Below the pieces are notes generated by a model. That model was not told the origin of the DNA. It saw only the letters and a list, made by a program, of their open reading frames with translations, and ran no database searches. From positions 29,802 through 93,801 of the forward strand of contig JAICPY010000001.1 of NCBI GenBank assembly GCA_025929585.1: DNA of 64,000 nt. The letters run 5' to 3'. Shown here piece after piece: positions 1,052-55,390 of the stretch. The position numbers were made by a program, and so were the translations under genes. Within the stretch, counting starts at the first letter, position 1. Each line of letters begins with the position of its first letter. Source of the DNA: Steroidobacter sp. GTDB taxonomy: Bacteria; Pseudomonadota; Gammaproteobacteria; Steroidobacterales; Steroidobacteraceae.

Positions 1052-3775
1052 TTAATGCGCATCGTCCCAGTTCTTTCCAGAACCGGCGTCGACACGTAAT
1101 GGCGTGCGCAGATCTGCAGCATCGCACATCAATTTGCGCACCTGTGGGATGAGCTCCTCGACGAGGTCTTCGCGAACCTCGAATACCAACTCATCGTGAA
1201 CCTGCATGATCAAGTGCGCATCGATCTTCGATGCTTGCAACCAACGATCCACTTCGATCATCGCGCGCTTGATGATGTCCGCGGCTGTGCCTTGCATCGG
1301 CGCATTAATTGCGGCGCGCTCGGCTCCTTGCCGCAGATTGTTGTTGCGCGAGTTGATTTCATTCAGATATAGGCGCCTGCCGAAAACCGTTTCGACGTAA
1401 CCGCCTTCGCGCGCCTGTTGGCGAGTTTGATCCATATAGCGGCGCACGCCGGGATAGCGTTGGAAATACAGATCCACATAATGCTGCGCTTCGGTGCGGC
1501 TGATGCCGAGACGACTGGCGAGTCCGAACGCCGACATGCCATAGATGAGTCCGAAGTTGATCGCCTTGGCGGAGCGACGCTGATCCGCGCTGACTTGATC
1601 GAGCGGGATGCCGAATACTTCTGCTGCCGTTGCTTGATGGATGTCGCGGTCCTCGCTGAAGGCATTCAGCAAACCGGCGTCTCCCGATAAGTGCGCCATG
1701 ATGCGAAGCTCGATCTGCGAATAGTCCGCCGCGACGATCAGCCATCCTGGAGGGGCGATGAAAGCTTTGCGTATGCGTCGTCCTTCGGTCGTTCTTATCG
1801 GAATGTTTTGCAGGTTGGGATCGGCGGAAGACAAACGTCCGGTGGCAGCAACCGCTTGCTGGTAGGTCGTGTGCACGCGGCCAGTCTTTGGATTGATCTG
1901 TAGCGGCAGCTTGTCGGTGTACGTCGATTTCAGTTTCGTGCAGCCTCGATATTCCAGGATCGTGCGCGGCAGCTCATAGCTTGCAGCGAGCTCTTCGAGC
2001 ACGTCTTCGGCGGTGGAGGGCTGACCGGTCGGCGTTTTTCGCAACACAGGCAAGCCAAGCTTGCCGAACAAGACCTCTTGGAGTTGCTTCGGCGATTCGA
2101 GCGCGAATGGGCCACCGCCGGACTGATGTGCTTGAGATTCCAATTCGCGCATGCGAGCAGCTAACTCACCGCTTTGCTGCTTCAGTAACGTGCCGTCGAT
2201 CAACACGCCGCGTTGTTCCATTCGGAACAGCACGGGTTCCAGGGGCTGTTCGATCTCCTCATAAAGCTTCTTGACGCCAGGAGCACTCTCGATCTGCGGC
2301 CACAGAACATGATGAAGCTGTAGCGAGACATCGGCTTCTTGCGCGCAGTGCGAGGTGGCAGTGTCGATTGCAATCTGGTTCACCCCGAGCTGCTTGGCTC
2401 CTCTGCCCGCGATGTCCTCGTAACCGATCGTCTCGAATCCAAGGTACTTACGCGCGAGTGACGGCACGTCGTGCTTGACCGCGGTGCTGTTCCAGACGTA
2501 CGACTCCAGCATCGCATCGAAGCGCACGCCCGCAAGCTCGATACCCAATCGTTTGAAGATGTGCGAGTCGAGTTTCAGGTTGTGTCCGGTCTTGATCACA
2601 TTCGGATCTTCCAGCAAGGGCTTCAATTCATTCAGCGCTTCGGATTCCGGCAACTGTGAAGGGGCGCCCGGATAGTCATGGGCGAGCGGCAGGTATGCGG
2701 CTTTTCCAGATCCAATGCAAAAGGAGAGCCCCACTAGCTGCGCTTGCATGTAGTCCATCGAAGTCGTCTTCGTATGGATCGAGATCAACGGCGCTGAACG
2801 CATGCGTCCGATCCATTCGCGCAGCGCATCCATCGTCGTGATCGTTTCATAAGCTTGAATCGGCGGCGCGCTCGAGCTCGGCGCCACAGTCGGCATCGTT
2901 GATCCTTGCTCTCCAGGAGCCGCGGCGTCGAGCTGCCGCAAGTGCGAGCGCAACTCCAAGCGGGTGTAGAGCTCGCGCAGACGATCGCGGTCTGGATCTC
3001 GATGAATGAGCGAGTCATAGGACTGTTCGAGCTCCAGATCACAGTGCAAGGTCGCGAGCTTGCGCGAGAGCTCGAGCTCCGTGAGGCTCGCGCGCAAGCT
3101 TTCGCCGACTTTGCCGGCAATCGCGCCGGCATTCTCGATGAGCTTATCGAGCGTGCCGTACTCGTTGAGCCATTTCGCCGCGGTCTTCGGTCCAACTTTC
3201 GGAACGCCGGGAATGTTGTCCGATGTGTCGCCGACGAGGGCCAAGTAGTCGATGATCTGCTCCGGGTAGACCTCGAACTTGTTCTTCACGCCTTCCCGAT
3301 CCAGGCGCGAGCCCGTCATCGTGTTCACCAAGGTGATCCGATCTCGCACGAGCTGCGCCATATCCTTATCGCCAGTAGAGATCAGAACATCTACATCCTC
3401 GCGCGCTGCACGCACTGCTAGGGTTCCGATCACATCGTCCGCTTCCACGCCTTCGATCCGAATCAACGGCAAACCCATAGCAACCACGCAATCGAGCAGC
3501 GGTTGCAGCTGCGAACGCAAATCATCCGGCATCGGCGAGCGCTGTGCTTTGTACGCCTCGAACAAATCGTCGCGGAACGTGCGGCCGGGTGCGTCGAACA
3601 CCACGCCGATCAGCTGCGGTGATTCCTCCTTGCAGAGTTTCTGCAGCATGTTGAGCACACCGAGCACAGCACCGGTCGGCTCGCCTTTCGAGTTCGACAA
3701 GGGCGGCAGCGCGTGAAAGGCGCGATACAAATACGAGGAACCGTCGACGAGAACGAGCTTGCGTCGAGTGCTCAT
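1052..3775 (-). CDS. polA: DNA polymerase I
   Basis: 907 aa. 5'-3' exonuclease N-terminus (LVDGSSYLYRAFHA, EADDVIGTL), motif A (ADYSQIELR), motif B (RRSAKAINFGLIYG), motif C (QVHDEL). Confidence 0.99.
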   Translation of the reverse strand: MSTRRKLVLVDGSSYLYRAFHALPPLSNSKGEPTGAVLGVLNMLQKLCKEESPQLIGVVFDAPGRTFRDDLFEAYKAQRSPMPDDLRSQLQPLLDCVVAMGLPLIRIEGVEADDVIGTLAVRAAREDVDVLISTGDKDMAQLVRDRITLVNTMTGSRLDREGVKNKFEVYPEQIIDYLALVGDTSDNIPGVPKVGPKTAAKWLNEYGTLDKLIENAGAIAGKVGESLRASLTELELSRKLATLHCDLELEQSYDSLIHRDPDRDRLRELYTRLELRSHLRQLDAAAPGEQGSTMPTVAPSSSAPPIQAYETITTMDALREWIGRMRSAPLISIHTKTTSMDYMQAQLVGLSFCIGSGKAAYLPLAHDYPGAPSQLPESEALNELKPLLEDPNVIKTGHNLKLDSHIFKRLGIELAGVRFDAMLESYVWNSTAVKHDVPSLARKYLGFETIGYEDIAGRGAKQLGVNQIAIDTATSHCAQEADVSLQLHHVLWPQIESAPGVKKLYEEIEQPLEPVLFRMEQRGVLIDGTLLKQQSGELAARMRELESQAHQSGGGPFALESPKQLQEVLFGKLGLPVLRKTPTGQPSTAEDVLEELAASYELPRTILEYRGCTKLKSTYTDKLPLQINPKTGRVHTTYQQAVAATGRLSSADPNLQNIPIRTTEGRRIRKAFIAPPGWLIVAADYSQIELRIMAHLSGDAGLLNAFSEDRDIHQATAAEVFGIPLDQVSADQRRSAKAINFGLIYGMSAFGLASRLGISRTEAQHYVDLYFQRYPGVRRYMDQTRQQAREGGYVETVFGRRLYLNEINSRNNNLRQGAERAAINAPMQGTAADIIKRAMIEVDRWLQASKIDAHLIMQVHDELVFEVREDLVEELIPQVRKLMCDAADLRTPLRVDAGSGKNWDDAH

Positions 3776-4035
3776 CGATCGCTCGGCTGGGTAGGTGGGC
3801 TTGCAGGATCCGCAGGAGATGTAGGCGCGTGAGTGTCCGTAGCGGGCGCGTCTTGCGTTCCCGGTTTGGTCTTCCGATCTCGCTGAGACTCGGGTGTTGG
3901 ATTGCTCGGCACTTGCTCCGGCTGCGCAACTTCTTGCGCCGCTCGATCAGGCAAGTACAACGGACCAGTTTGGCCGCAGGCGCTTAAGCAGAGGCAAGCG
4001 GCTGCAACGAGCGTGAGTACGTAGGGCACCTTCAT
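3772..4035 (-). CDS. lptM: Small lipoprotein, LptM/YifL (LppL) family
   Basis: Lipobox LSAC followed by the family motif CGQTGPLYLP; low-complexity tail; overlaps the polA start by 4 nt. Confidence 0.8.
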   Translation of the reverse strand: MKVPYVLTLVAAACLCLSACGQTGPLYLPDRAAQEVAQPEQVPSNPTPESQRDRKTKPGTQDAPATDTHAPTSPADPASPPTQPSDR

Positions 4036-4163: not shown

Positions 4164-4589
4164 TCACGTTACTTCCAACACCGCCATTGTGATCCGGGAA
4201 ATGCACACGAGGCGTTCCTGCTCATCGACGATGCGGATCTCCCAAACGTGGCTGCGCTTACCGATGTGAATCGGACGTGCCGTGCCGATCACGAATCCCT
4301 TTGCGATCGCACGCACGTGATTAGCGTTGATCTCTTGCCCAACCGCGCGATACTTACTCGGATCGATAACCAAGCCTGCCGCTACGCTGCCCAGAGTCTC
4401 TGCAAGCGCCACCGATGCGCCGCCATGCAAGATGCCGAACGGCTGACGCGTTCGTTCATCCACCGGCATGCGACCTTTCAAGTAGCCATCACCGAGCTCG
4501 ATGAACTCGATACCTAATTGACTCGCTAGCGTCTGACAGCGAAAGTGAATTTGGTCCAGAGAGTAGGGGTGGAACCAGAGCTGAGTCAT
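4164..4589 (-). CDS. Hotdog-fold thioesterase (PaaI/MenI-YdiI-like)
   Basis: Motif QPFGILHGGASVALAET, then EINANHVR; 141 aa. Confidence 0.92.
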   Translation of the reverse strand: MTQLWFHPYSLDQIHFRCQTLASQLGIEFIELGDGYLKGRMPVDERTRQPFGILHGGASVALAETLGSVAAGLVIDPSKYRAVGQEINANHVRAIAKGFVIGTARPIHIGKRSHVWEIRIVDEQERLVCISRITMAVLEVT

Positions 4590-4590
4590 G

Positions 4591-4713
4591 GTGACGGGTG
4601 ACCGGTGACGAGTGACGAGTGACGAGCAAGATGGTGAGCTGGACTATTCAGATCTTACTAGTACGTGATGATTCTGGTATTCACATGCTTGCTCGTCACT
4701 CGTCACCCGTCAC
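4591..4713. repeat. Inverted 7-mer tandem array, GTGACGA type
   Basis: Five units at 4591-4625; three (T/C)CGTCAC units at 4693-4713 containing the argH stop. Confidence 0.92.
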
Positions 4714-5899
4714 TCTCCTTCTTTAATGCTTTCCCCACCCGTCGATACGCATCCCGGAACGGAATGCCTTCCTTCACGACCATTTCGTTCGCTTGGGCGG
4801 CGGCGTGGATCGAGGGATCGAGTTTGATTCGGTCGGTGCGGAATTTCACGCCTTCGAGCGCCGCGGGCAGAATATTCAGAGTGTCTAAGCACAAATCGAT
4901 GCTGCGGAAGAGCGGGGCTTTGATCAGTTGAAGATCGCGCTGATAGCCCGAAGGGAGTTTCGCGGTGATGGCCATGACTTCAAACAAGCACGCCTGTGCA
5001 GTGGCGGTGCGGCCCCGGATCAGCTCGAATACATCCGGATTACGCTTCTGCGGCATGATCGATGAGCCGGTCGTGAAGGCATCCGGCAAGCTCACGAACG
5101 AGAATTCTTGCGTGTAGAACAAAAGCAGGTCCGAGGAGAGGCGACCGACGTCCTGCATGACGAGCGCGATTTCGAAACCGAGTTGCGCCTCTGCCTTGCC
5201 TCGCGAAAGCTGTACGGCAGTCAGCGGCTCGTGAACCGAATCGAAACCCAATCGACGGCGAGTCTCTTCACGATCGATCGGCAAATTCGGCGAGCCGTAG
5301 CCCGCTGCAGAGCCGAGCGGACTTTTGCCGACGCGGCGCTGCACTTGCTTGAGACCTTCCGCATCATCGCGCAGCTCCGCGGCGAAACCGCCCGCCCACA
5401 GAGCAACCGAGCTCGGCATTGCCTGCTGCATGTGAGTGTAGCCAGGAATGGCTATGGCGCCATCGCGGCTTGCGAGATCATCCAGTGCTGCGGCAACGGT
5501 GAGCACCCGCTCGGCCAACGCGTCCACTGCATCGCGCAGGTACAAGCGCACCGCGGTGAGCACCTGATCATTACGCGAGCGTCCCAAGTGCACCCGTTTG
5601 CCTGCATCACCGATCCGCGCGGTGAGTAGTGTCTCCAGTGCGGTCTGGCCGTCTTCGTGCTGCAACGAAACGTGCCATTCACCGCGGCTGTGCTCTTCGG
5701 CGATCTGCGTCAGTCCACGCCGAATCGCTTCCAGGTCTTCGCTCGACAACAGGCCATTCGCATTCAGCATTTCGGCGTGCGCGATCGACGCTCGCACGTC
5801 ATACGCAACCAAACGATTGTCGAGGCCGTGATCTTCACCGGCCGTATAGCGCAGCACTCGCTCGTCGAGCGGCGCACCTTTGTCCCAAAGACGACTCAT
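4703..5899 (-). CDS. argH: Argininosuccinate lyase (short, 398 aa)
   Basis: RLWDKG N-terminus, GRSRNDQV, GYTHMQQA, fumarate-lyase signature GSSIMPQKRNPD; last gene of the arg operon. Confidence 0.96.
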   Translation of the reverse strand: MSRLWDKGAPLDERVLRYTAGEDHGLDNRLVAYDVRASIAHAEMLNANGLLSSEDLEAIRRGLTQIAEEHSRGEWHVSLQHEDGQTALETLLTARIGDAGKRVHLGRSRNDQVLTAVRLYLRDAVDALAERVLTVAAALDDLASRDGAIAIPGYTHMQQAMPSSVALWAGGFAAELRDDAEGLKQVQRRVGKSPLGSAAGYGSPNLPIDREETRRRLGFDSVHEPLTAVQLSRGKAEAQLGFEIALVMQDVGRLSSDLLLFYTQEFSFVSLPDAFTTGSSIMPQKRNPDVFELIRGRTATAQACLFEVMAITAKLPSGYQRDLQLIKAPLFRSIDLCLDTLNILPAALEGVKFRTDRIKLDPSIHAAAQANEMVVKEGIPFRDAYRRVGKALKKESDG

Positions 5900-6065: not shown

Positions 6066-6992
6066 TTATACCGCTTGTTGCTCCGCTGCGCTCAGCACGC
6101 TGACGTTCTCGACGACCAGCGTGCCGGTGCCTTCGTTGGTGAACACTTCGGCGAGGATGCTGTCGTGTGATTTGTAGGAGATCACATGCACGCGCCGCAC
6201 ACCGCCGCGGATCGCTTCTTCGATGGCTTTGGCTTTTGGCAGCATGCCATCTTTCAGGCTGCCTTGCGCTTTGAGTCTTTGAAGGCCGGCCAAATCGGTG
6301 TACGAGATAATCGAGCGCGTATCTTCCACGGACTCGAGAATGCCGGGTGCGCCGGTGCACAGCATCAGCTTCTCTGCTTTCAGCGCCGCACCGATGCCGG
6401 CTGCAACGGTATCTGCATTGATGTTGAGCAACGTGCCTTTGTCGTCGGCCGAGACGGGGCTCACCACCGGCATGAGGCCGTCATCGAGCAATTGCGACAG
6501 AACCTTTGCATCGATCAAATCTATGTCGCCGACCAAGCCGTAGTCCACGACTTCACCTTCGACATTGACCGGAGGACGCTTGTGCGCGCGCACGAGTCCC
6601 GCGTCCACGCCGCTCACGCCGACCGCCGCGATATCGAGCTCCCGGCAAATGCCGAGGATTTGCGTGTTCACGAGGCCGTTGAGCACCATGCTGGTGACTT
6701 CCATCGACTTCTCATCGGTGACACGACGGCCCGCGACGACTCGGGGCGTGATCCCTAAGGATTCTTGGATCTTAGTGAGCTGAGGACCCCCGCCGTGTAC
6801 GAGTACGACGCGAATGCCAACTTGGTGAAGGATCGCGACTTGCTCGATCAGCGCGCGTGTCGAGGCAAGATCGCCGAACACGCCGCCGCTCGCCTTGATG
6901 ACGAACACCTTGCCTTTGTACATGCGGATGTACGGTGCGGCACTGCGTAGTGCGCGAACGGCAACGGAAGGATCGGTGCGAAGCAAAGACAT
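6066..6992 (-). CDS. argB: N-acylglutamate kinase (no C-terminal acetyltransferase domain)
   Basis: LVHGGGPQ, GRRVTD, LLNINADTVA, GMLPK motifs. Start set to MSLLRT at 6992; the upstream in-frame extension is repeat-derived. Confidence 0.95.
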   Translation of the reverse strand: MSLLRTDPSVAVRALRSAAPYIRMYKGKVFVIKASGGVFGDLASTRALIEQVAILHQVGIRVVLVHGGGPQLTKIQESLGITPRVVAGRRVTDEKSMEVTSMVLNGLVNTQILGICRELDIAAVGVSGVDAGLVRAHKRPPVNVEGEVVDYGLVGDIDLIDAKVLSQLLDDGLMPVVSPVSADDKGTLLNINADTVAAGIGAALKAEKLMLCTGAPGILESVEDTRSIISYTDLAGLQRLKAQGSLKDGMLPKAKAIEEAIRGGVRRVHVISYKSHDSILAEVFTNEGTGTLVVENVSVLSAAEQQAV

Positions 6993-7014: not shown

Positions 7015-7146
7015 GTTGAGGGTTGACGGTTGACAGTTGGCGGCCAGAAGCACAGTGAGTGAATTGAGTGTTGGCGGTTAGGAGTTGGCAAATAACGAGC
7101 AGAGTCCGATCTTTTTTCCTGCCGTCAACTGTCAACCGTCAACCTC
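7015..7146. repeat. Inverted 7-mer tandem array, GTTGAC(A/G) type
   Basis: Units at 7015-7042; three (C/T)GTCAAC units at 7123-7143 containing the argF' stop. Confidence 0.9.
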
Positions 7147-8137
7147 GCAACAAGCGGTACAGCACTGCCATCTGCACGACCATTCGATTGAATGCCTCGC
7201 GGATGACGACGCTGCGCGGTCCATCCAATACTTCGTCGGCGACGGCGACATTACGGCGCACCGGTAGGCAATGCATGAAGTGACATTTGCGATCCGCGTT
7301 CTTGAACCAAGTGTCCTTTACACACCAGTCGCTCAGGTATTCGCGCAGGCGTGCATCCGCTTCGTTGTCGCCGTAATGCTGAGGTGAACCCCATTCTTTC
7401 GCATACAACACATGAGCGCCATCTAGTGCTTCAGTGCGATCTGTCGTTTCCCGAACCGAGCCGCCGGAGGCACGTGCCGCTTGATGCGCCTTCTCCATGA
7501 CTTGTTCAGGCAACGCAAATCCATCGGGCCGTAGCACGACGACTTCCATGCCGCGCATCGCGGCCATATGCACGGTCGCGGAGGGAACAGCCAGCGGTAG
7601 CGCGCGTGGGTGATTCGCCCAGCTCAAGACAAACTTGCCTCGGTCCGGCACGCGCAATTCATCCATGGTGTGCCAATCGGCGAGCGCTTGGCAGGGATGG
7701 TTGACGGCGGATTCCATGTTCACGAGCGGCTTGTCACACAGGTCTGCCATCATTCGAAATCCGGTTTCCGCCAGATCGGTCGCCAGATTGCGACCTTCGG
7801 CGAACATGCGAATGCCGAGTGCATCGCAGTAAGAAGCAAGCACCGGCACAGCTTCGCGTACATGTTCCGCGGCCGCGCCATTCATGATCGCCCCCGAGCG
7901 CGTTTCCATCTGCCACGTTCCTTGCCCTGGCGTGATCACGACCGCCGTACCGCCCAAGCGCATCATCGCGCTCTGAAATGAAGCGAGTGTTCTGAGCGAA
8001 GGGTTCAAGAACAATAAACCCAACACTTTCCCCGCCAACGCCTGCGGCTGCGGATGCTGCTGCAAGCGCGCAGCCAACCCCAGCAGGTCCTTGACGTTTT
8101 CACGCGGAAAATCGGCGAGATCTAGGAAGCGGTTCAT
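7139..8137 (-). CDS. argF: N-acylornithine carbamoyltransferase, ArgF' family (predicted succinyl-specific, see findings)
   Basis: SLRT carbamoyl-phosphate motif (AOTC/SOTC type, not STRT), HPCQALAD, HPRALP, FMHCLPVRR. Start at 8137. Confidence 0.93.
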   Translation of the reverse strand: MNRFLDLADFPRENVKDLLGLAARLQQHPQPQALAGKVLGLLFLNPSLRTLASFQSAMMRLGGTAVVITPGQGTWQMETRSGAIMNGAAAEHVREAVPVLASYCDALGIRMFAEGRNLATDLAETGFRMMADLCDKPLVNMESAVNHPCQALADWHTMDELRVPDRGKFVLSWANHPRALPLAVPSATVHMAAMRGMEVVVLRPDGFALPEQVMEKAHQAARASGGSVRETTDRTEALDGAHVLYAKEWGSPQHYGDNEADARLREYLSDWCVKDTWFKNADRKCHFMHCLPVRRNVAVADEVLDGPRSVVIREAFNRMVVQMAVLYRLLRG

Positions 8138-8143
8138 AAGTTG

Positions 8144-8284
8144 GTGACGAGTGACAAGTGACGGGTGACGGGCAAGAGGTATATGACGACGACTGGCCGC
8201 CATCCCGGATCGATACGTTGATGCAGCAAGGTTCTCACTGAGGCCATCTCCGTAATTTCTTTCCCGTCACTCGTCACTCGTCAC
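8144..8284. repeat. Inverted 7-mer tandem array, GTGACGA type
   Basis: Four units at 8144-8171; three complementary units at 8264-8284 containing the argD stop. Confidence 0.92.
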
Positions 8285-9453
8285 TTCGGGATGCGCACTA
8301 GCGCATCCCGAAGCTGATCCACATGCTCCCGCTCCAGCACGAAGGGCGCGAGGATTCGCAGCACGTTCGGATCGGCGCTGGTGCCGGTGAGAATGCCTTG
8401 GCGTAGCAGCTCGGCCTGGATGTCTTTCGCTGGGCGTGTCGTGCGAAGTCCGAGCAAGAAACCCGCACCTTGCGTTGCGACCACGGGGCCGACCACACAG
8501 CTCTGGCGAATTTCGTTCGAACGCTGACGAACGTTCTCGAGCAGGTTCTCCGATTCGATGATATCGATCACGGCTTCGACGATCGCACAAGCCATGGGGC
8601 CGCCGCCGAACGTCGTACCGAGGGAATCCATCTTGAGGTACGGCGCGATCATGTCCGAGACCAGCATTGCGGAAACCGGGAATCCCGCACCGAGCGCTTT
8701 CGCCGTCGTGAGGATGTCTGGTGTTACGCCGTACATGTTCGCTGCGAATGGATAGCCAGTCCGGCCGACACCGGATTGGACTTCATCGAAAATAAGTATC
8801 GAGCCGTTTTCTGAGCAACGGAATCGCAGCGCTTCGAGGAATGCCTTCGGCAGGTCGACTGCGCCAGCAACACCTTGCACGGGCTCGACGATGACTGCTG
8901 CGGTCTGATCGTCGATCAGCGTCGCGAGCTTGTCGATGTCGCTTGGCTTGATGAAGGCAACATCGAACGGCTTCTTGGGAAAGCCATACCATTTCTTCTC
9001 CGCGCCCCAGGTGACGGCTCCCGCGGCTGCGGTGCGTCCATGGAAACTTCCCTCGACCGCGAGCACCTTAGTACCGCCCGTCATCTTGCACGCGAGCTTC
9101 AGAGCGTTCTCGTTCGCTTCCGCACCAGAGTTCACGAAAAAAATCGTGTCCAAGCCCAGCCCGCAGAATTGTGCGAGCTTCGTGGCGGCACGACGCCGAA
9201 CGTCCATCGGCACTGCATTGCTTTGAAAACAAAGCGAGGTTGCTTGCTTGGTGAGTGCCTCAACCCAGCGCGGATGGCCATAGCCCAGCGCGGCAACCGC
9301 ATGCCCGCCGTAGAGATCGAGCACGCGACGGCCACCAGGCGTATGCAGGTAGACACCTTGCGCATCCACGACTTCCAGCGGAAATTGCGCAAACACAGGT
9401 GCGAGATGATCGGGTAGCGCGCGATTGATCGATGTCACGTTATCTGGGGTCAT
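8281..9453 (-). CDS. argD: N-acylornithine aminotransferase (class III PLP)
   Basis: DLYGGHAV, NSGAEANENALK, FHGRT, FDEVQSGVGRTG, AKALGAG (PLP lysine). Confidence 0.95.
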   Translation of the reverse strand: MTPDNVTSINRALPDHLAPVFAQFPLEVVDAQGVYLHTPGGRRVLDLYGGHAVAALGYGHPRWVEALTKQATSLCFQSNAVPMDVRRRAATKLAQFCGLGLDTIFFVNSGAEANENALKLACKMTGGTKVLAVEGSFHGRTAAAGAVTWGAEKKWYGFPKKPFDVAFIKPSDIDKLATLIDDQTAAVIVEPVQGVAGAVDLPKAFLEALRFRCSENGSILIFDEVQSGVGRTGYPFAANMYGVTPDILTTAKALGAGFPVSAMLVSDMIAPYLKMDSLGTTFGGGPMACAIVEAVIDIIESENLLENVRQRSNEIRQSCVVGPVVATQGAGFLLGLRTTRPAKDIQAELLRQGILTGTSADPNVLRILAPFVLEREHVDQLRDALVRIPK

Positions 9454-9601: not shown

Positions 9602-10672
9602 TCACGTCCATCCTGCCGCAGGTGCGCTGAGGCCGGTTGTTTCTCCGAAACCGTAGGCACGATTCAACCATTGCAACGCGCCGCCGGCTGCGCCTTTTAC
9701 TAGATTATCAACCACGCAGACGACCGCGAGCGACTTGCCTGATGCGGCGCCGCTAATAAAGGAGTAGTTGCTTCCCGCAACATCTTTTACGTGCGGCATC
9801 GAGCTCGTCACTCGGATAAACGGTTTGTTCCGATAGAACTCGCTCAATCCCTCGAGCAGTTCCGCTGTCTTGATAGATTTCTTCGCGTACGCCTGCACCG
9901 TTACATGAATGCCGCGCGCGAAAGGACCGGAATGGGGCACGAAGTTGAACTCCGCCTCCACATCCGCAGCGATGCGAGTCAGGGCAACGATTTCCGGCGT
10001 GTGCCGATGCGAAAGCGGGTTATACGCGTACAGATCGCTATGGCGCTGCGGATGATGGGTGCCAGCAGAAGGTGTTCGGCCTGAACCTGTGCTTCCAGTG
10101 ATGCCCGATACGAATAGTCGTGGCTCGGCATAACCGAGCTTCAGGATCGGCACGCTGGCCAGCAAGACGGCGGTTGCGAAACAGCCTGGATGCGCCACGT
10201 GTTGCGTCTCGAGCGTGTCGAGATGCTCGGGCACGGCACAAGAGAACTGGCCGATTCGCGCCGGCGCGCCATGGCTGTGTTTGTACACGGCTTCATACTC
10301 ACCGGCGGTCGGATACCGATAGTCAGCAGAGATGTCGAACGCTCGAACACGCGTTCCCTTCTGCTCGGCTGCCTTCAGTAACCCATCGATCAACTGCGCT
10401 GCAACCCCGTGAGGAGCCGCGGACACGATTGCGGATTCCGGCAGTTCGCCGACGAGCTTGGTGATCTCTTCAAGACTGGAGAACGTGAGCTGCGGATAGA
10501 TCGGAGCAAGATGGCTAAAGGATTTTGCAACCGCCTCGCCCGGCTGGCTATCCGAGAGCACGGCTTTGAGCTCCAGTCGAGGATGACCTGCGATCAAGCG
10601 CAGCAACTCGCCGGCAACATAGCCGGTGCCGCCCAGAACGATGATTGGGAGTTTGTGAGGTTGGATATTCAT
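9602..10672 (-). CDS. argC: N-acyl-gamma-glutamyl-phosphate reductase
   Basis: GGTGYVAGEL Rossmann motif, HPGCFATA catalytic Cys, DNLVKGAAG. Start at 10672. Confidence 0.96.
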   Translation of the reverse strand: MNIQPHKLPIIVLGGTGYVAGELLRLIAGHPRLELKAVLSDSQPGEAVAKSFSHLAPIYPQLTFSSLEEITKLVGELPESAIVSAAPHGVAAQLIDGLLKAAEQKGTRVRAFDISADYRYPTAGEYEAVYKHSHGAPARIGQFSCAVPEHLDTLETQHVAHPGCFATAVLLASVPILKLGYAEPRLFVSGITGSTGSGRTPSAGTHHPQRHSDLYAYNPLSHRHTPEIVALTRIAADVEAEFNFVPHSGPFARGIHVTVQAYAKKSIKTAELLEGLSEFYRNKPFIRVTSSMPHVKDVAGSNYSFISGAASGKSLAVVCVVDNLVKGAAGGALQWLNRAYGFGETTGLSAPAAGWT

Positions 10673-10784: not shown

Positions 10785-11864
10785 TCATTCGACCGCGTCC
10801 ACGGCGAGCTTCGCGCTCAGCCCGATCGACTCGATCACACGGTCGGCAAGCGCAGCGCCGTCGGTGATTGCGTTGAAGGCCGGCACGCCGAACTGATCAC
10901 GAATGATATTCACGCCGACCGCATTGTCCGTCGCAGGTCCGGTCACCACCGAAGGTTCGATGCCGAACTTCTCGCGTAACAGCTTGACTCCGCCCCAAGC
11001 GGCGACTGGATCGTTCGCGGACAGGACGACTGAAGTCAATGCGGTGCGAATGTCGGGAGAAGAAAGAATCGCTTCCACCCCATAGGCTCCGAGGATTCCA
11101 TCGCCCAACTCGAACACGATGACATCGGGTTCGCCTTGTGACATCTCGCTGAGCAACGCGCGCGTAATCGCCGCGCCGTTCTTCGCAGTCGTCGTGACGA
11201 CACCGAGGTCCGTGAAGATCATGCTGCGTCGCGCGCCGGCATCTTCCATCGCGAGAATGTCACGTCGCAGCGAAACGCCGGTTGCCTTGAACGCATGCAC
11301 GTTCAAGCCGCGATGACGCATCCGGGAGACGATTGCGCACGCGGCCGCGGTCTTGCCGGCTTCCATGCAAGTGCCCGCCAACGCTACGACCGGTACACCT
11401 CTGGTGTTCAGCGTCGCGTTGAAGTCCAACCGCTGATAACCGACGCGGGCAGGAACCCCGATGCGTTCGCCGAGATAGGGAAACTGCAACACGACACCAA
11501 TGACGCGTGCGTCGAAAGGACGGCCTTTTTCCGGGTTCACCGAATCGACGATCCCGAGCACCCCGCCGATGTTGAGGACTTGAATGATGTCGCCTTCCTT
11601 CACCGACTCGGGAAGGTGACCCGAATAGCCGAAGAGCGCCTGACGATGTCCCAATGCGCCGACGATGATGTCTCCTTTGGACACTTTCGCCATCCGCCCG
11701 CTGGTCAGCTCGAGTGTGTTGTACGTGGACTTGTTGTTTAGAACCTCGGCAACGAGCACCACGCCCTCTTCGCACGGAATATCCGTGGTGGCGACGCGTA
11801 ATTCTCGGCTCAGGTTCAACGCCTGAGTGATGGACGCGACTTTGTCGACAACGACGGTTTTCAT
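10785..11864 (-). CDS. DUF1611-family P-loop-like protein (DgcN N-acyltransferase-related), function unassigned
   Basis: 359 aa from MKTVVVDK, motif AGTCMEAGKT, FKATG, ELGDGILG; sits between argG and argC. Family assignment by motif recognition. Confidence 0.75.
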   Translation of the reverse strand: MKTVVVDKVASITQALNLSRELRVATTDIPCEEGVVLVAEVLNNKSTYNTLELTSGRMAKVSKGDIIVGALGHRQALFGYSGHLPESVKEGDIIQVLNIGGVLGIVDSVNPEKGRPFDARVIGVVLQFPYLGERIGVPARVGYQRLDFNATLNTRGVPVVALAGTCMEAGKTAAACAIVSRMRHRGLNVHAFKATGVSLRRDILAMEDAGARRSMIFTDLGVVTTTAKNGAAITRALLSEMSQGEPDVIVFELGDGILGAYGVEAILSSPDIRTALTSVVLSANDPVAAWGGVKLLREKFGIEPSVVTGPATDNAVGVNIIRDQFGVPAFNAITDGAALADRVIESIGLSAKLAVDAVE

Positions 11865-11917: not shown

Positions 11918-13138
11918 TTAGTTCTTTCCTGCGCGTGTCCAGAACATGCTGGGCAAGCTGACCATCTTGGAAAAGCCGAGCGCATCGGCGGCGGTCCATT
12001 CTCCGGCCGCTTCGCCGTAAACGCCTTTGGATGCAGCCATGATCGAGAAAGGCGAGGTGACCCCTTCGACGAACGCATTGCCTGGCCGGTAGAGCACCTT
12101 CACTTCTCCGGTAACGCGCGATTGCGAAGCGACAAACAGCGCCTCGATGTCACGGCACACTGGATCCAAGTGCTGACCTTCATGAACGAGATCGCCGTAA
12201 GGACCTGCGAGCATCTCCTTGATTCGCTGCTGCCGGCCCGTCATGACGAGCTTTTCCAATTCACGGTGAGCGTTGATCAGCACCTCCGCCGCTGGTGCCT
12301 CGAAGGCGACGCGGCCTTTCGTGCCGATGATCGTATCGCCCAAGTGAATTCCGCGGCCGACGCCGAATTTTGCACCGATCGCTTCGATCTGCTCGATCAG
12401 CGTCACCGTATCGAGCTTCGTTCCATCCAAACTGACGGGCACGCCGTCCTGAAACCCGATAGTGTGCGACTCGGGCGCTTGCGGCTTGGTGAATGCATCT
12501 TTGGACAGTACCCACGCGTGTTCGGGAATGCTGCCATCGGAGGTCAGCGTTTCCTTTCCACCGATCGTCACGCCCCACAGTCCTCGATTTACTGAATATG
12601 CGGCGCCATACGGCGGAATCGGCAGCTTGCGCTCTTCCAGATAGTTGAGCTGCTCGGGTCGCTTGAATGCTCTGTCGCGCACCGGCGCAAGAATCGTGAG
12701 CTCGGGCGCGAGTGTCCGAAGCGCAACCTCGAATCGCACTTGGTCGTTGCCGGCCGCGGTGCAGCCATGTGCGACGACCTTTGTGCCAATCTTGCGCGCG
12801 TATTCCGCGATCGTCTGGGCTTGCATGACCCGTTCGGCACCCACGCACAAAGGATACATCTGACCGCGTTTGACGTTACCGATGATGAGGTACTTGATGA
12901 CCTGATCGAAGTACGCCTTTCGTGCGTCGATCTGCACATGATCCTTCGCGCCCAGCTCGCGTGCGCGCTGTGCCAATACGCGCGTAGCTTCTTCATCGAT
13001 ACCGCCGGTGTCGACTGTCACAGTGATGATGGGCCGGCCGTAATTCGCACTTAGCCATGGAACGAGGAACGAGGTATCGAGCCCGCCCGAAAAGGCCAAG
13101 AGAATGGGTTCGTTGCCGGCGGGAAGTTGGTCGGTCAT
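11918..13138 (-). CDS. argG: Argininosuccinate synthase
   Basis: AFSGGLDTS, AHGCTAAGNDQVRFE, GIKG-like IIGTKGRVAFEAPAA. Confidence 0.97.
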   Translation of the reverse strand: MTDQLPAGNEPILLAFSGGLDTSFLVPWLSANYGRPIITVTVDTGGIDEEATRVLAQRARELGAKDHVQIDARKAYFDQVIKYLIIGNVKRGQMYPLCVGAERVMQAQTIAEYARKIGTKVVAHGCTAAGNDQVRFEVALRTLAPELTILAPVRDRAFKRPEQLNYLEERKLPIPPYGAAYSVNRGLWGVTIGGKETLTSDGSIPEHAWVLSKDAFTKPQAPESHTIGFQDGVPVSLDGTKLDTVTLIEQIEAIGAKFGVGRGIHLGDTIIGTKGRVAFEAPAAEVLINAHRELEKLVMTGRQQRIKEMLAGPYGDLVHEGQHLDPVCRDIEALFVASQSRVTGEVKVLYRPGNAFVEGVTSPFSIMAASKGVYGEAAGEWTAADALGFSKMVSLPSMFWTRAGKN

Positions 13139-13151
13139 TTGTAGGATAGAA

Positions 13152-13256
13152 GCGGTTAGCGGTTAGCGGTTAGCGGATAGTCGGAAGACGGAGCGGAAGA
13201 CGTGCGAGGCGGCGCGTTCTTTCCGAACCCATCCGCCATCCGCTATCGGCTATCCG
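13152..13256. repeat. Inverted 7-mer array, GCGGTTA/GCGGATA type
   Basis: Four units at 13152-13179 then GTCGGA; four C(C/T)ATC(C/G)G units at 13229-13256 containing the argR stop. Confidence 0.88.
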
Positions 13257-13729
13257 TTTCTCGGTTCCGTCTCCAGTTTGGGGAAGACTTCGCGCAAGCG
13301 AGCCGTGAGCTTGCGTTGTTCGCGACCGTCCTCGGTCGCGATGAAAATGGTGTCGTCACCCGAGATCGTGCCGACGACCTCCGGCCAATTCGATCGATCG
13401 ATGGCGACCGCCACGCTCTGCGCCGTGCCGGTGGTCGTCTTGACGACGGTCAACGACGGCCCGGCCGTGCGCACTGCCACGACGAAGTTCGCAATCGCCG
13501 CGAAATGATGGGTCGCCAACGCATCTTCGCTAGCGGGGACGATGTAGTGGTCACCCGCTTTTGCGACACCTAATTCGCGCAGGTCGCGGCTGACGCTGGA
13601 CTGCGTGGCATCGAACCCGTGCTTGTGCAGCACCTTCACCAACTCGTCCTGATTGCGCACGGTCGATTCGCGAAGGATTCGCAAGATCGCTGCCCGGCGC
13701 GAGACTGATTGGTGAATTTCGGCGGCCAT
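13250..13729 (-). CDS. argR: Arginine repressor
   Basis: NQDELV, ATQSSVSRDLREL winged HTH, VVGTISGDDTIF arginine-binding motif. Start at 13729. Confidence 0.97.
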   Translation of the reverse strand: MAAEIHQSVSRRAAILRILRESTVRNQDELVKVLHKHGFDATQSSVSRDLRELGVAKAGDHYIVPASEDALATHHFAAIANFVVAVRTAGPSLTVVKTTTGTAQSVAVAIDRSNWPEVVGTISGDDTIFIATEDGREQRKLTARLREVFPKLETEPRNG

Positions 13730-22591: not shown

Positions 22592-22722
22592 GGCAATAGG
22601 GAATAGGGGAAAGGGGATGGTCAGAGAAGAATGAGATCTCGAGGCTGAACGGAACGTGAGCAGCAAGGTGAATCCTCGAGAGTCTGACGACCCGCGAGTC
22701 ACTAGTCACGAGCCGCGATCCT
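22592..22722. repeat. Array pair with non-matching arms
   Basis: GG(G/C)(A/G)A(T/A)A x4 then GTCAGA; TCTGAC then GACCCGC/GAGTCAC-type units. Confidence 0.75.
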
Positions 22723-23711: not shown

Positions 23712-24362
23712 TCATGAGCAGGTCCCAACTACGGGAATGGGTGAGTGCATCCGAATCTCTCTGACACGACTCAGCGTCGAGCGGCGAGGGGCGTTTTTGG
23801 TTTGGCGGCGGCGGCCTATTTTACCCGCAGCCACACTCTTCAGATGGCAGGCGGGGCAAGGCCGCTGCAGCACGGTGCTGCGGTCGTACAAAAAGTGACC
23901 TTCGCATTGCCGACAGCGCAAGGTGCGCAAGCCGGTCTTGCGACACAAAATATGTAACAAGAACCACGCGTGTTCGAAGGTCAATACGCTAGGCCGTAGA
24001 AGCTGGATGTGGGTCTCGTACGCATCGCAGAACCGATCGCCGTAATGAATGGACCCGGGCGTCGTCGCTGCGCCGTCGAGCAAACCTAGTGCCGCGAACA
24101 CGCTCGCGAGTAAGGAAGCCTCGAATTGCACCTTGGCGTTGCGCGTAAAGAACGACACTTGCCTAGGCGACTTGCCCCGATGGCGGCGCATCGGAATCGC
24201 GGGCATGTGGCTGGCATATGTTTGATACAACCGCCGGATGCGATCGTCCGTCAGGCCAGTGCACGCCCGGATCGTGCAGGTGCGCGCCTCGTGGCGAATC
24301 ATTCGCAGCGCTAAGTCGTGGCGCTGGCGATCGTCGAAATAGCGTTCGTTGCTGATGTGCAT
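23712..24362 (-). CDS. FlhC-like transcriptional activator
   Basis: LALRMIRHEAR...TGLTDDRIRRLY, AYETH, FEHAWFLL and C4 zinc site CRQC...CPAC align by eye with FlhC; RBS AAGGAG. Confidence 0.75.
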   Translation of the reverse strand: MHISNERYFDDRQRHDLALRMIRHEARTCTIRACTGLTDDRIRRLYQTYASHMPAIPMRRHRGKSPRQVSFFTRNAKVQFEASLLASVFAALGLLDGAATTPGSIHYGDRFCDAYETHIQLLRPSVLTFEHAWFLLHILCRKTGLRTLRCRQCEGHFLYDRSTVLQRPCPACHLKSVAAGKIGRRRQTKNAPRRSTLSRVREIRMHSPIPVVGTCS

Positions 24363-24561
24363 GGACTACTCCTTGTCCGTTGTGGTTGGTCCGTTGTGGC
24401 CCTGTCTGTTGTAATTTGGCTGCCGTGCTCACGCGCTCCGTGCGTGGGATTCGAAGCTCGTTCCGAAGGACCGAGCGCCGAAGCGCAGTGTGCTGGAAAT
24501 TGACGGCGGCGTGAAGCCCCGGATAAGCTCACCGGGCGTTATCGTTGCAAGGAAGCAGCTC

Positions 24562-25272
24562 ATGACCAGCAGAATCACGGACGATTCTCGTCCCTCGCTC
24601 GCGCCCGTTCTTCGCCTCGACCTGCTCGATTGTCTACATGGCTTGAATGCAGACTATCTCGAGCTATTGGCGGCAGAGTACAAGTTCGGTACTTGTGCGG
24701 CCCAACTCCAATATTTTCCGCAGAGATTACACGCCACTATCGCCAGCTTGACCGGAGAGGAGCGGTTGCGTATCGCGCGTACGCCGTATTCGCTCTTCTC
24801 GTTGCGCTTCGTTGATGTGCGATTCTGGAGCACAGTTTGCCGCCCGACCAACGTGCCACTGGATGTGCGCTATTCGCCTCGCTGCAGCCATTCGTTGGAA
24901 GGGCCATTCTGTGAGATGGCATTGATCCAGGCGTGGCAAACCGCGCGAGCATTCCCCTTGGCAGCGCGGCTGATGTACTCGATGGGCGAGCAGGTTCGCG
25001 ACTGTTTTCAAGCAATGCCGCTGTGGCAGGTCAGGCGTTTGGCAATCGATCATCCCTCGCTCCTGATGCCGCGCTGGCCAACGAACGCCGGATTCTGGCC
25101 CGATTTGCTCGCCTTCTCGCTCAAGAAAGATCTCGCGCGCTTGACCGCGGTGCAACTGTTGGGAACTCAGCTCGTCGCGGCGGAGATCACTCGCGGAAAT
25201 GAGGTTGGCGCGAATGGCCAGAAAGCTTCAGTGAGTCAGGGCAGGCCCTCGGTGAAGGAGTGTGGAGGATGA
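24562..25272 (+). CDS. Protein with two FlhD-like helical repeats
   Basis: LHGLNADYLELLA...LTGEERLRIARTPYSLFSLRF and ALIQAWQTAR...AARLMYSM...MPLWQVRRLA...LLMPRW both resemble FlhD; divergent from the FlhC-like gene; RBS AAGGAAG. Confidence 0.6.
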   Translation: MTSRITDDSRPSLAPVLRLDLLDCLHGLNADYLELLAAEYKFGTCAAQLQYFPQRLHATIASLTGEERLRIARTPYSLFSLRFVDVRFWSTVCRPTNVPLDVRYSPRCSHSLEGPFCEMALIQAWQTARAFPLAARLMYSMGEQVRDCFQAMPLWQVRRLAIDHPSLLMPRWPTNAGFWPDLLAFSLKKDLARLTAVQLLGTQLVAAEITRGNEVGANGQKASVSQGRPSVKECGG

Positions 25273-41933: not shown

Positions 41934-42155
41934 GTGACGGAGTGACGAGTGACGGGTGACGGGCAAGAGAAGAGGAATCGCGATGCGAACTTACAACGTA
42001 GGGTATTTCGTGTCGACTCGCAGCAGCACGAGGAGTGAGTTGACGGTTGACAGTTGGCTGTTGACAGCAAGATAAAGAATACACACGCTTCGCCGTCACC
42101 CGTCACCCGTCACCCGTCACCCGTCACCCGTCACCCGTCACCCGTCACCCGTCAC
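41934..42155. repeat. Composite array locus
   Basis: GTGACG(A/G) x4 (41934-41962), GTTGAC-type x4 (42039-42066), CCGTCAC x9 perfect (42093-42155). Confidence 0.95.
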
Positions 42156-55270: not shown

Positions 55271-55390
55271 GTGACGGGTGACCGGTGACGAGTGACGAGT
55301 CAGAAAACAATGGTGACGGGATGGCGACGACGCAAGGTAAGCGTGTGCTTTCCGCTCTCACCCGTCACCCCGTCACCCGTCACTTGTCAC
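55271..55390. repeat. Inverted 7-mer array, GTGACGA type
   Basis: Four units then GTCAGA (55299); complementary units at 55362-55390; convergent yadH/PQQ dehydrogenase junction. Confidence 0.92.

Follow-up and report, generated by a model that had tools for sequence, protein, structure and literature searches.

The arginine operon encoded in a 64,000-nucleotide stretch of Steroidobacter DNA (hereafter the window) raises the question of which acyl group its biosynthetic intermediates carry and, in particular, whether its carbamoyltransferase, ArgF', acts on N-acetylornithine or on N-succinylornithine. The argument that one switch residue tells these two activities apart has reportedly been in print since Shi et al. 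2007. In the N-acetylornithine carbamoyltransferase (AOTCase) of Xanthomonas campestris, replacement of Glu92 by Ala, Pro, Ser or Val turns the enzyme toward N-succinylornithine (PMC4581275; 10.1101/2024.10.14.618325). A 2015 review by the authors of the mutagenesis gives the rule for three positions in X. campestris numbering, with Glu92, Asn185 and Lys302 in an AOTCase and Ala, Ser, Pro, Val or Gln at 92, Pro at 185 and Val, Ile or Glu at 302 in an N-succinylornithine carbamoyltransferase (SOTCase), and describes how H176, R178 and R278 anchor the succinyl group in the SOTCase of Bacteroides fragilis (PMC4581275). In 2020, the GapMind study found that the switch position confirmed succinylated intermediates in 69 Bacteroidetes (PMC7311316).

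For the lineage considered here, a relative has already been treated in the same terms. As described in Appendix 2 of the GapMind 2026 preprint, Steroidobacter denitrificans DSM 18526 grows on minimal medium and has no recognisable ArgA or ArgE, nor is any desuccinylase reported for it (10.1101/2024.10.14.618325). Its arg cluster contains a hypothetical protein, ACG33_RS14135 (A0A127FCT3), whose homologues are almost always encoded within arg operons and never together with ArgA, and 90% of the 70 ArgF' proteins encoded beside such homologues have Ala, Pro, Ser or Val at position 92 (10.1101/2024.10.14.618325). The preprint predicts N-succinylated intermediates, with ACG33_RS14135 as an alternative N-succinylglutamate synthase (10.1101/2024.10.14.618325). 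Both the switch rule and the succinyl reading of a Steroidobacter ArgF' have thus been published, the latter as a prediction for S. denitrificans. The present analysis adds the agreement of residues 181, 298 and 178, the invariance of the signature in orthologues from 80 loci, the rarity of the acetyl-type signature in the family at large, and the behaviour of the NF003384 cutoff.

The genes of the operon lie on the minus strand in the order argR-argG-X-argC-argD-argF'-argB-argH. The arginine repressor gene argR (13250-13729; Pfam Arg_repressor and Arg_repressor_C) stands upstream of argG, for argininosuccinate synthase (11918-13138; TIGR00032 and NF001770), and between argG and argC (9602-10672; TIGR01850) there is a DUF1611-like gene of 359 codons, here called X (10785-11864). 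They are followed by argD (8281-9453), for an N-acylornithine aminotransferase whose best match is TIGR00707, the acetylornithine/succinylornithine transaminase family, at 323 bits and below the cutoff of 410; by argF' itself (7139-8137); by argB (6066-6992; TIGR00761), for an N-acylglutamate kinase made of the kinase domain only, without a fused GNAT domain; and by argH, for argininosuccinate lyase (4703-5899; TIGR00838). With such an operon, the route to arginine would run by way of N-acylated compounds as far as N-acylcitrulline. ArgB, ArgC and ArgD have no signature by which acetyl and succinyl could be told apart.

A genome scan seeded with X returned at least 574 genome stretches encoding a relative of this protein, the best 80 of which, all with at least 76% identity, were taken as related loci. 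These 80 loci all come from Steroidobacteraceae-like Gammaproteobacteria, including Steroidobacter, Peristeroidobacter and Povalibacter, and keep the order argG-X-argC-argD-argF'-argB-argH wherever the contig is long enough; an argR homologue is found in 73 of them. The window itself (58% G+C) represents a species of its own, to which the nearest locus is about 80% identical at the nucleotide level.

The open reading frame of argF' spans 7139-8203 on the minus strand and has a second in-frame ATG upstream at 8203. Because the homologues of ArgF' are nearly all 332 aa long, the start was placed at the ATG at 8137, which gives a protein of exactly this length. The 22-codon upstream extension lies inside an intergenic repeat element (8144-8285) that fills the region between argD and argF' and is the source of the spurious longer frame. 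Three further copies of this element are found at 4591-4713, where it overlaps the stop codon of argH, at 41942-42155 and at 55271-55390, together with a single partial match at 22697. Each is made up of three to nine heptamers (GTGACNN)n facing an inverted array (NNGTCAC)n, and the spacer of about 70-130 nt that lies in between differs from copy to copy. A 13-mer of the array has 27 matches compared with 3.1 expected, a number reached in none of 100 shuffles. As only one single array was seen among the 80 related loci, the element looks lineage-specific; it could be a REP-like or an RNA-hairpin element.

Other genes of the window deserve a brief mention. Directly downstream of argH there is a gene for a 4HBT/PaaI-type hotdog thioesterase (4164-4589, minus strand). 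With a homologue in just 23 of the 80 related loci, it was rejected as a member of the pathway and probably has no part in making arginine. Next come a gene for a small LptM-like lipoprotein (3772-4035, minus strand) and polA (1052-3775). Farther away, an open reading frame of 216 aa (23712-24362, minus strand) matches the flagellar activator FlhC at a modest 34 bits, for a cutoff of 27; it is flanked by a NUDIX NADH pyrophosphatase gene and an unassigned 260-aa open reading frame (24490-25272), and no flhD-like frame was noticed next to it.

A phmmer search of the PDB places ArgF' beside the two solved enzymes of known specificity, the X. campestris AOTCase (206-208 bits) and the B. fragilis SOTCase (1JS1 and 2FG6; 196 bits), with ordinary ornithine and aspartate carbamoyltransferases scoring far lower. 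The top match is 3L02, the E92A mutant of the X. campestris enzyme, which has the loop MDGDTAEH. In a three-way MAFFT alignment the identity of ArgF' is 36.6% to the X. campestris AOTCase and 36.5% to the B. fragilis SOTCase, with residue numbers that coincide with those of the latter from about 36 to 160. Read on the minus strand, positions 7885-7862 (ATG AAT GGC GCG GCC GCG GAA CAT) encode M85-N-G-A-A-A90-E-H92; the segment MNGAAAEHV and the position of its Ala90 codon (GCG, 7868-7870) are exactly as given in the initial annotation. In both the phmmer and the MAFFT alignments, and without gaps in the surrounding 80s loop, Ala90 falls opposite Glu92 of X. campestris (MDGDTEEH) and Pro90 of B. 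fragilis (MDGDKPEH). The correspondence that the annotation had drawn between these residues therefore holds, with Ala and not Glu at the switch, and its account of the switch itself is borne out by the E92A, E92S and E92V mutants of X. campestris in the PDB (3L02, 3L05 and 3L06) and by the agreement of two papers.

The remaining pocket positions point in the same direction. Pro181 (codon 7595-7597, minus strand) aligns with Asn185 of X. campestris and Pro181 of B. fragilis, and Ala298 (7244-7246, minus strand) with Lys302 and Ile282, respectively. Two of the three SOTCase positions are thus matched exactly, whereas Ala298 is neither Lys nor one of the published Val, Ile and Glu; with Ala90, Pro181 and Ala298 in place, Glu92, Asn185 and Lys302 of the AOTCase are all missing. 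Moreover, every B. fragilis succinyl anchor has its equivalent in the alignment: the stretch His176-Pro-Arg178 (7604-7612, minus strand) matches H176 and R178, the latter standing opposite Lys182 of X. campestris, and Arg294 (7256-7258, minus strand) corresponds to R278, a residue conserved in the X. campestris enzyme too.

The catalytic residues common to the family are conserved as well. The carbamoyl-phosphate motifs SxRT, HPxQ and HxLP (PMC4581275) are present as S47-L-R49-T50, H147-P-C-Q150 and H289-C-L-P292, the proline-rich loop reads HPRALPLAVP, and the extended 80s loop carries W75. This tryptophan, E142 and K247 align with W75, E142 and K236 of B. fragilis and with W77, E144 and K252 of X. 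campestris, and F112 is also conserved. An AlphaFold2 model of ArgF', built with 22 homologues of at least 80% identity, reached a mean pLDDT of 55 and fell below 50 in the N-terminal domain and the 80s loop; because this model is too poor, the comparison with the solved structures was made through gap-free sequence alignments. Judging from its homology to knotted structures in the PDB, the C-terminal domain would contain the trefoil knot.

These traits also leave almost no room for reading ArgF' as an ordinary carbamoyltransferase of free ornithine (ArgF/ArgI), even if a few JGI records call its orthologues ornithine carbamoyltransferases: its proline-rich loop, its extended 80s loop bearing Trp75 and its Lys247/Glu142 pair are those of the knotted acylornithine enzymes, its scores on the ornithine carbamoyltransferase models lie far under the cutoffs (TIGR00658, 150 bits compared with 281), and neither ArgE nor ArgJ, the makers of free ornithine, was found in the operon.

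How unusual is such a pocket? A search of 1.84 billion cluster representatives with ArgF' led to an alignment of 60 full-length family sequences, comprising representatives of 50%-identity clusters and reference proteins. At the switch position, 19 of them have Ala, 12 Val, eight Pro, five Ser, five Thr, four Gln and three Glu. At position 181, Pro occurs in 50 of the 60, and at position 298 Lys and Ala are found in three and four sequences, respectively, along with Glu, Val and Ile in others. The full signature of Glu, Asn and Lys is restricted to X. campestris and one other cluster (P0300), which a rough neighbour-joining tree of the 60 sequences joins in one small clade. From these counts, Ala is the commonest state of the switch and the acetyl-type pocket is the exception. 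At closer range, the ArgF' orthologues of the 80 related loci all have A90, H176, R178, P181 and A298 wherever the tblastn match covers these residues, while positions 86-88 vary; Ala90 is no chance residue in its lineage.

This distribution bears on the names given to these proteins. The NCBIfam model NF003384, an equivalog called 'N-acetylornithine carbamoyltransferase', gives 344 bits for the ArgF' of the window, above its cutoff of 288, and the proven SOTCase of B. fragilis scores 279 bits, just below it. This model gauges overall similarity and not the acyl pocket. Orthologues of ArgF' are labelled N-acetylornithine carbamoyltransferase by NCBI, UniProt and JGI, just as the initial annotation had anticipated when it warned that an automated name would be misleading. 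The mis-naming is probably systematic in the knotted acylornithine carbamoyltransferase family, to judge from its residues, because Glu, Asn and Lys come together in one small clade, Pro is found in 50 of 60 sequences, and NF003384 still names such members AOTCase. If the succinyl reading is right, the AOTCase label would, by pocket residues, be wrong for most members of the ArgF' family (the 50 of 60 clusters with Pro), and a wrong label would affect metabolic reconstructions and auxotrophy predictions.

Altogether, Ala90, Pro181 and Ala298 and the three anchors suggest that ArgF' most likely converts N-succinyl-L-ornithine into N-succinyl-L-citrulline (EC 2.1.3.11). We estimate the chance of a preference for the succinylated substrate at about three in four. 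The prediction is drawn from sequence and carries over switch experiments performed on the enzymes of X. campestris and B. fragilis, to each of which ArgF' is about 37% identical. In the proposed mechanism, the acyl-pocket Glu that excludes the succinyl carboxylate in X. campestris is replaced by Ala90, Asn185 and Lys302 give way to Pro181 and Ala298, and H176, R178 and R294 may hold the succinyl carboxylate as their counterparts do in B. fragilis. The main competitor, which we regard as unlikely, is that ArgF' works in vivo as an N-acetylornithine carbamoyltransferase, or with dual specificity and a substrate set by the product of X, in a pathway that is acetylated; the name in the databases would then be wholly or half correct. 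The score above the NF003384 cutoff, which the proven SOTCase does not reach, is in line with this alternative, and so is the D-glutamate N-acetyltransferase activity of the sole relative of X to have been characterised (10.1101/2024.10.14.618325); furthermore, the loss of Glu92 lifts the barrier to succinyl and does not by itself exclude acetyl. Against it, none of the three AOTCase residues is left in ArgF', E92A alone makes a SOTCase of the X. campestris enzyme (PMC4581275; 10.1101/2024.10.14.618325), Arg178 corresponds to a succinyl anchor of B. fragilis, and the score of the profile reflects overall similarity rather than the pocket.

A further alternative is that ArgF' takes ornithine bearing some other acyl group, such as another dicarboxylic acyl or a carrier-linked form. 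The family is mostly uncharacterised and its pocket diverse (Ala, Val, Pro, Ser, Thr and Gln at position 90; Glu, Val, Ile and Ala at 298), the combination of Ala298 with Arg178 is a minority one, and both the putative synthase X and the putative deacylase would be non-canonical, all of which would suit such a substrate. No positive evidence speaks for it, while the succinyl-binding residues of B. fragilis are all conserved and succinyl is the simplest reading of the published mutagenesis, so that we deem it improbable, clearly more so than an acetyl-using or dual-specificity enzyme.

If ArgF' is succinyl-specific, the remaining steps of the pathway would carry succinyl groups as well: X probably supplies N-succinylglutamate, and a putative hydrolase would take the succinyl group off N-succinylcitrulline. 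The inference of a succinylated pathway made in the initial annotation gains in this respect from Pro181, the non-Lys residue Ala298 and the three B. fragilis-type succinyl anchors, which lend it support at the level of aligned residues. Its description of the pathway as Bacteroidota-like stands only in part. In Bacteroides the synthase is of the GNAT type (BT3761-like), the desuccinylase is of the M20 type (BT3549-like), and the ArgB of B. fragilis is an N-succinylglutamate kinase (PMC7311316). Among the open reading frames of at least 200 aa and three shorter ones of the 64-kb window, no M20, AstE-like, ArgE, DapE, ArgA, ArgJ or GNAT protein was found. The succinyl-type pocket of ArgF' agrees with the description, but no frame for a GNAT synthase or an M20 desuccinylase was found with it among these frames, and a DUF1611-like gene is found instead. 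The pathway would be succinyl-type by its ArgF' pocket and not simply Bacteroidota-like, because its predicted first enzyme differs and the scanned frames of the window offer no deacylase candidate.

Gene X is the most singular element of the operon. Its product has no Pfam or NCBIfam match above threshold, only a weak one to DUF1611_C (E = 0.0017) below the threshold of Pfam, and a profile search of PDB sequences returned nothing, even with E up to 10. Identities of 79-95% were found across the 120 closest database clusters listed, and the protein is 86% identical to A0A127FCT3 of S. denitrificans (P0167). AlphaFold gave a confident model only from about residue 150 to 350, a C-terminal P-loop domain, with no confident model for the 143 N-terminal residues, which are highly conserved. 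A Foldseek search with the C-terminal domain returned folds of the SIMIBI class (SRP GTPases, HypB, the DUF1611 structures 2OBN and 2G0T, and dethiobiotin synthetase), with DUF1611 structures ranking third and twelfth. The P-loop reads GTCMEAGKT, a spacing that we take to be that of the dethiobiotin-synthetase and DUF1611 type. Our literature search found no paper joining DUF1611 and arginine. The modelled fold agrees with the remote link drawn in the preprint to the DUF1611 D-glutamate acetyltransferase DgcN, and does not indicate the acyl donor; X is a very remote relative of that acetyltransferase, a kinship that says nothing for succinyl-CoA.

Two more speculative roles may be considered for X, both of which we hold to be improbable. 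As a recognisable N-acylglutamate synthase and N-acylcitrulline hydrolase are both lacking and the operon has exactly one extra conserved gene, X might pass the succinyl group of N-succinylcitrulline on to glutamate, on a DUF1611-like P-loop scaffold and in a cyclic pathway like that of ArgJ; and as its P-loop is dethiobiotin-synthetase-like, it might be an ATP-dependent succinate-glutamate ligase and not a transferase that depends on CoA. An argument against the dual role comes from genomes in which homologues of X lie beside argE candidates (10.1101/2024.10.14.618325). We continue to favour X as the probable supplier of N-succinylglutamate, upstream of a succinyl-specific ArgF'. If this is true, arginine would be made through succinylated and not acetylated intermediates in an entire family of Gammaproteobacteria from soils and sediments, and the label 'N-acetylornithine carbamoyltransferase' would be wrong for the Steroidobacteraceae as a whole.

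Among known systems, the SOTCase of B. fragilis, itself an ArgF' (1JS1, 2FG6, 2FG7 and 2G7M), belongs to the same knotted fold family and is likewise encoded in an arginine cluster. It shares with the ArgF' of the window a switch residue other than Glu, Pro181, H176, R178, the arginine at 278 or 294, W75, F112, E142 and the lysine that opens the 240s loop, and differs from it, at 36.5% identity, in having Pro instead of Ala90 at the switch and Ile282 instead of Ala298; in the C-terminal domain, the insertion of the window's ArgF' is longer. The AOTCase of X. campestris aligns over the full length with 36.6% identity, but its wild type has E92, N185 and K302 together with Lys182 where the window has Ala, Pro and Ala together with Arg178, and its E92A mutant is reported to work as a SOTCase. 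Closer at hand, S. denitrificans encodes orthologues of both proteins of interest, its ArgF' (A0A127FEB7, 85% identical to that of the window) and ACG33_RS14135, with the same operon order and the same switch residue; it is a different species from the source of the window, and the preprint that deals with it cites position 92 only. Finally, the D-glutamate N-acetyltransferase DgcN and the DUF1611 family (7XRJ, 2OBN and 2G0T) have a P-loop fold in common with the C-terminal domain of X, from which they differ by a similarity below the Pfam threshold and presumably by the acyl donor and the stereochemistry of the acceptor.
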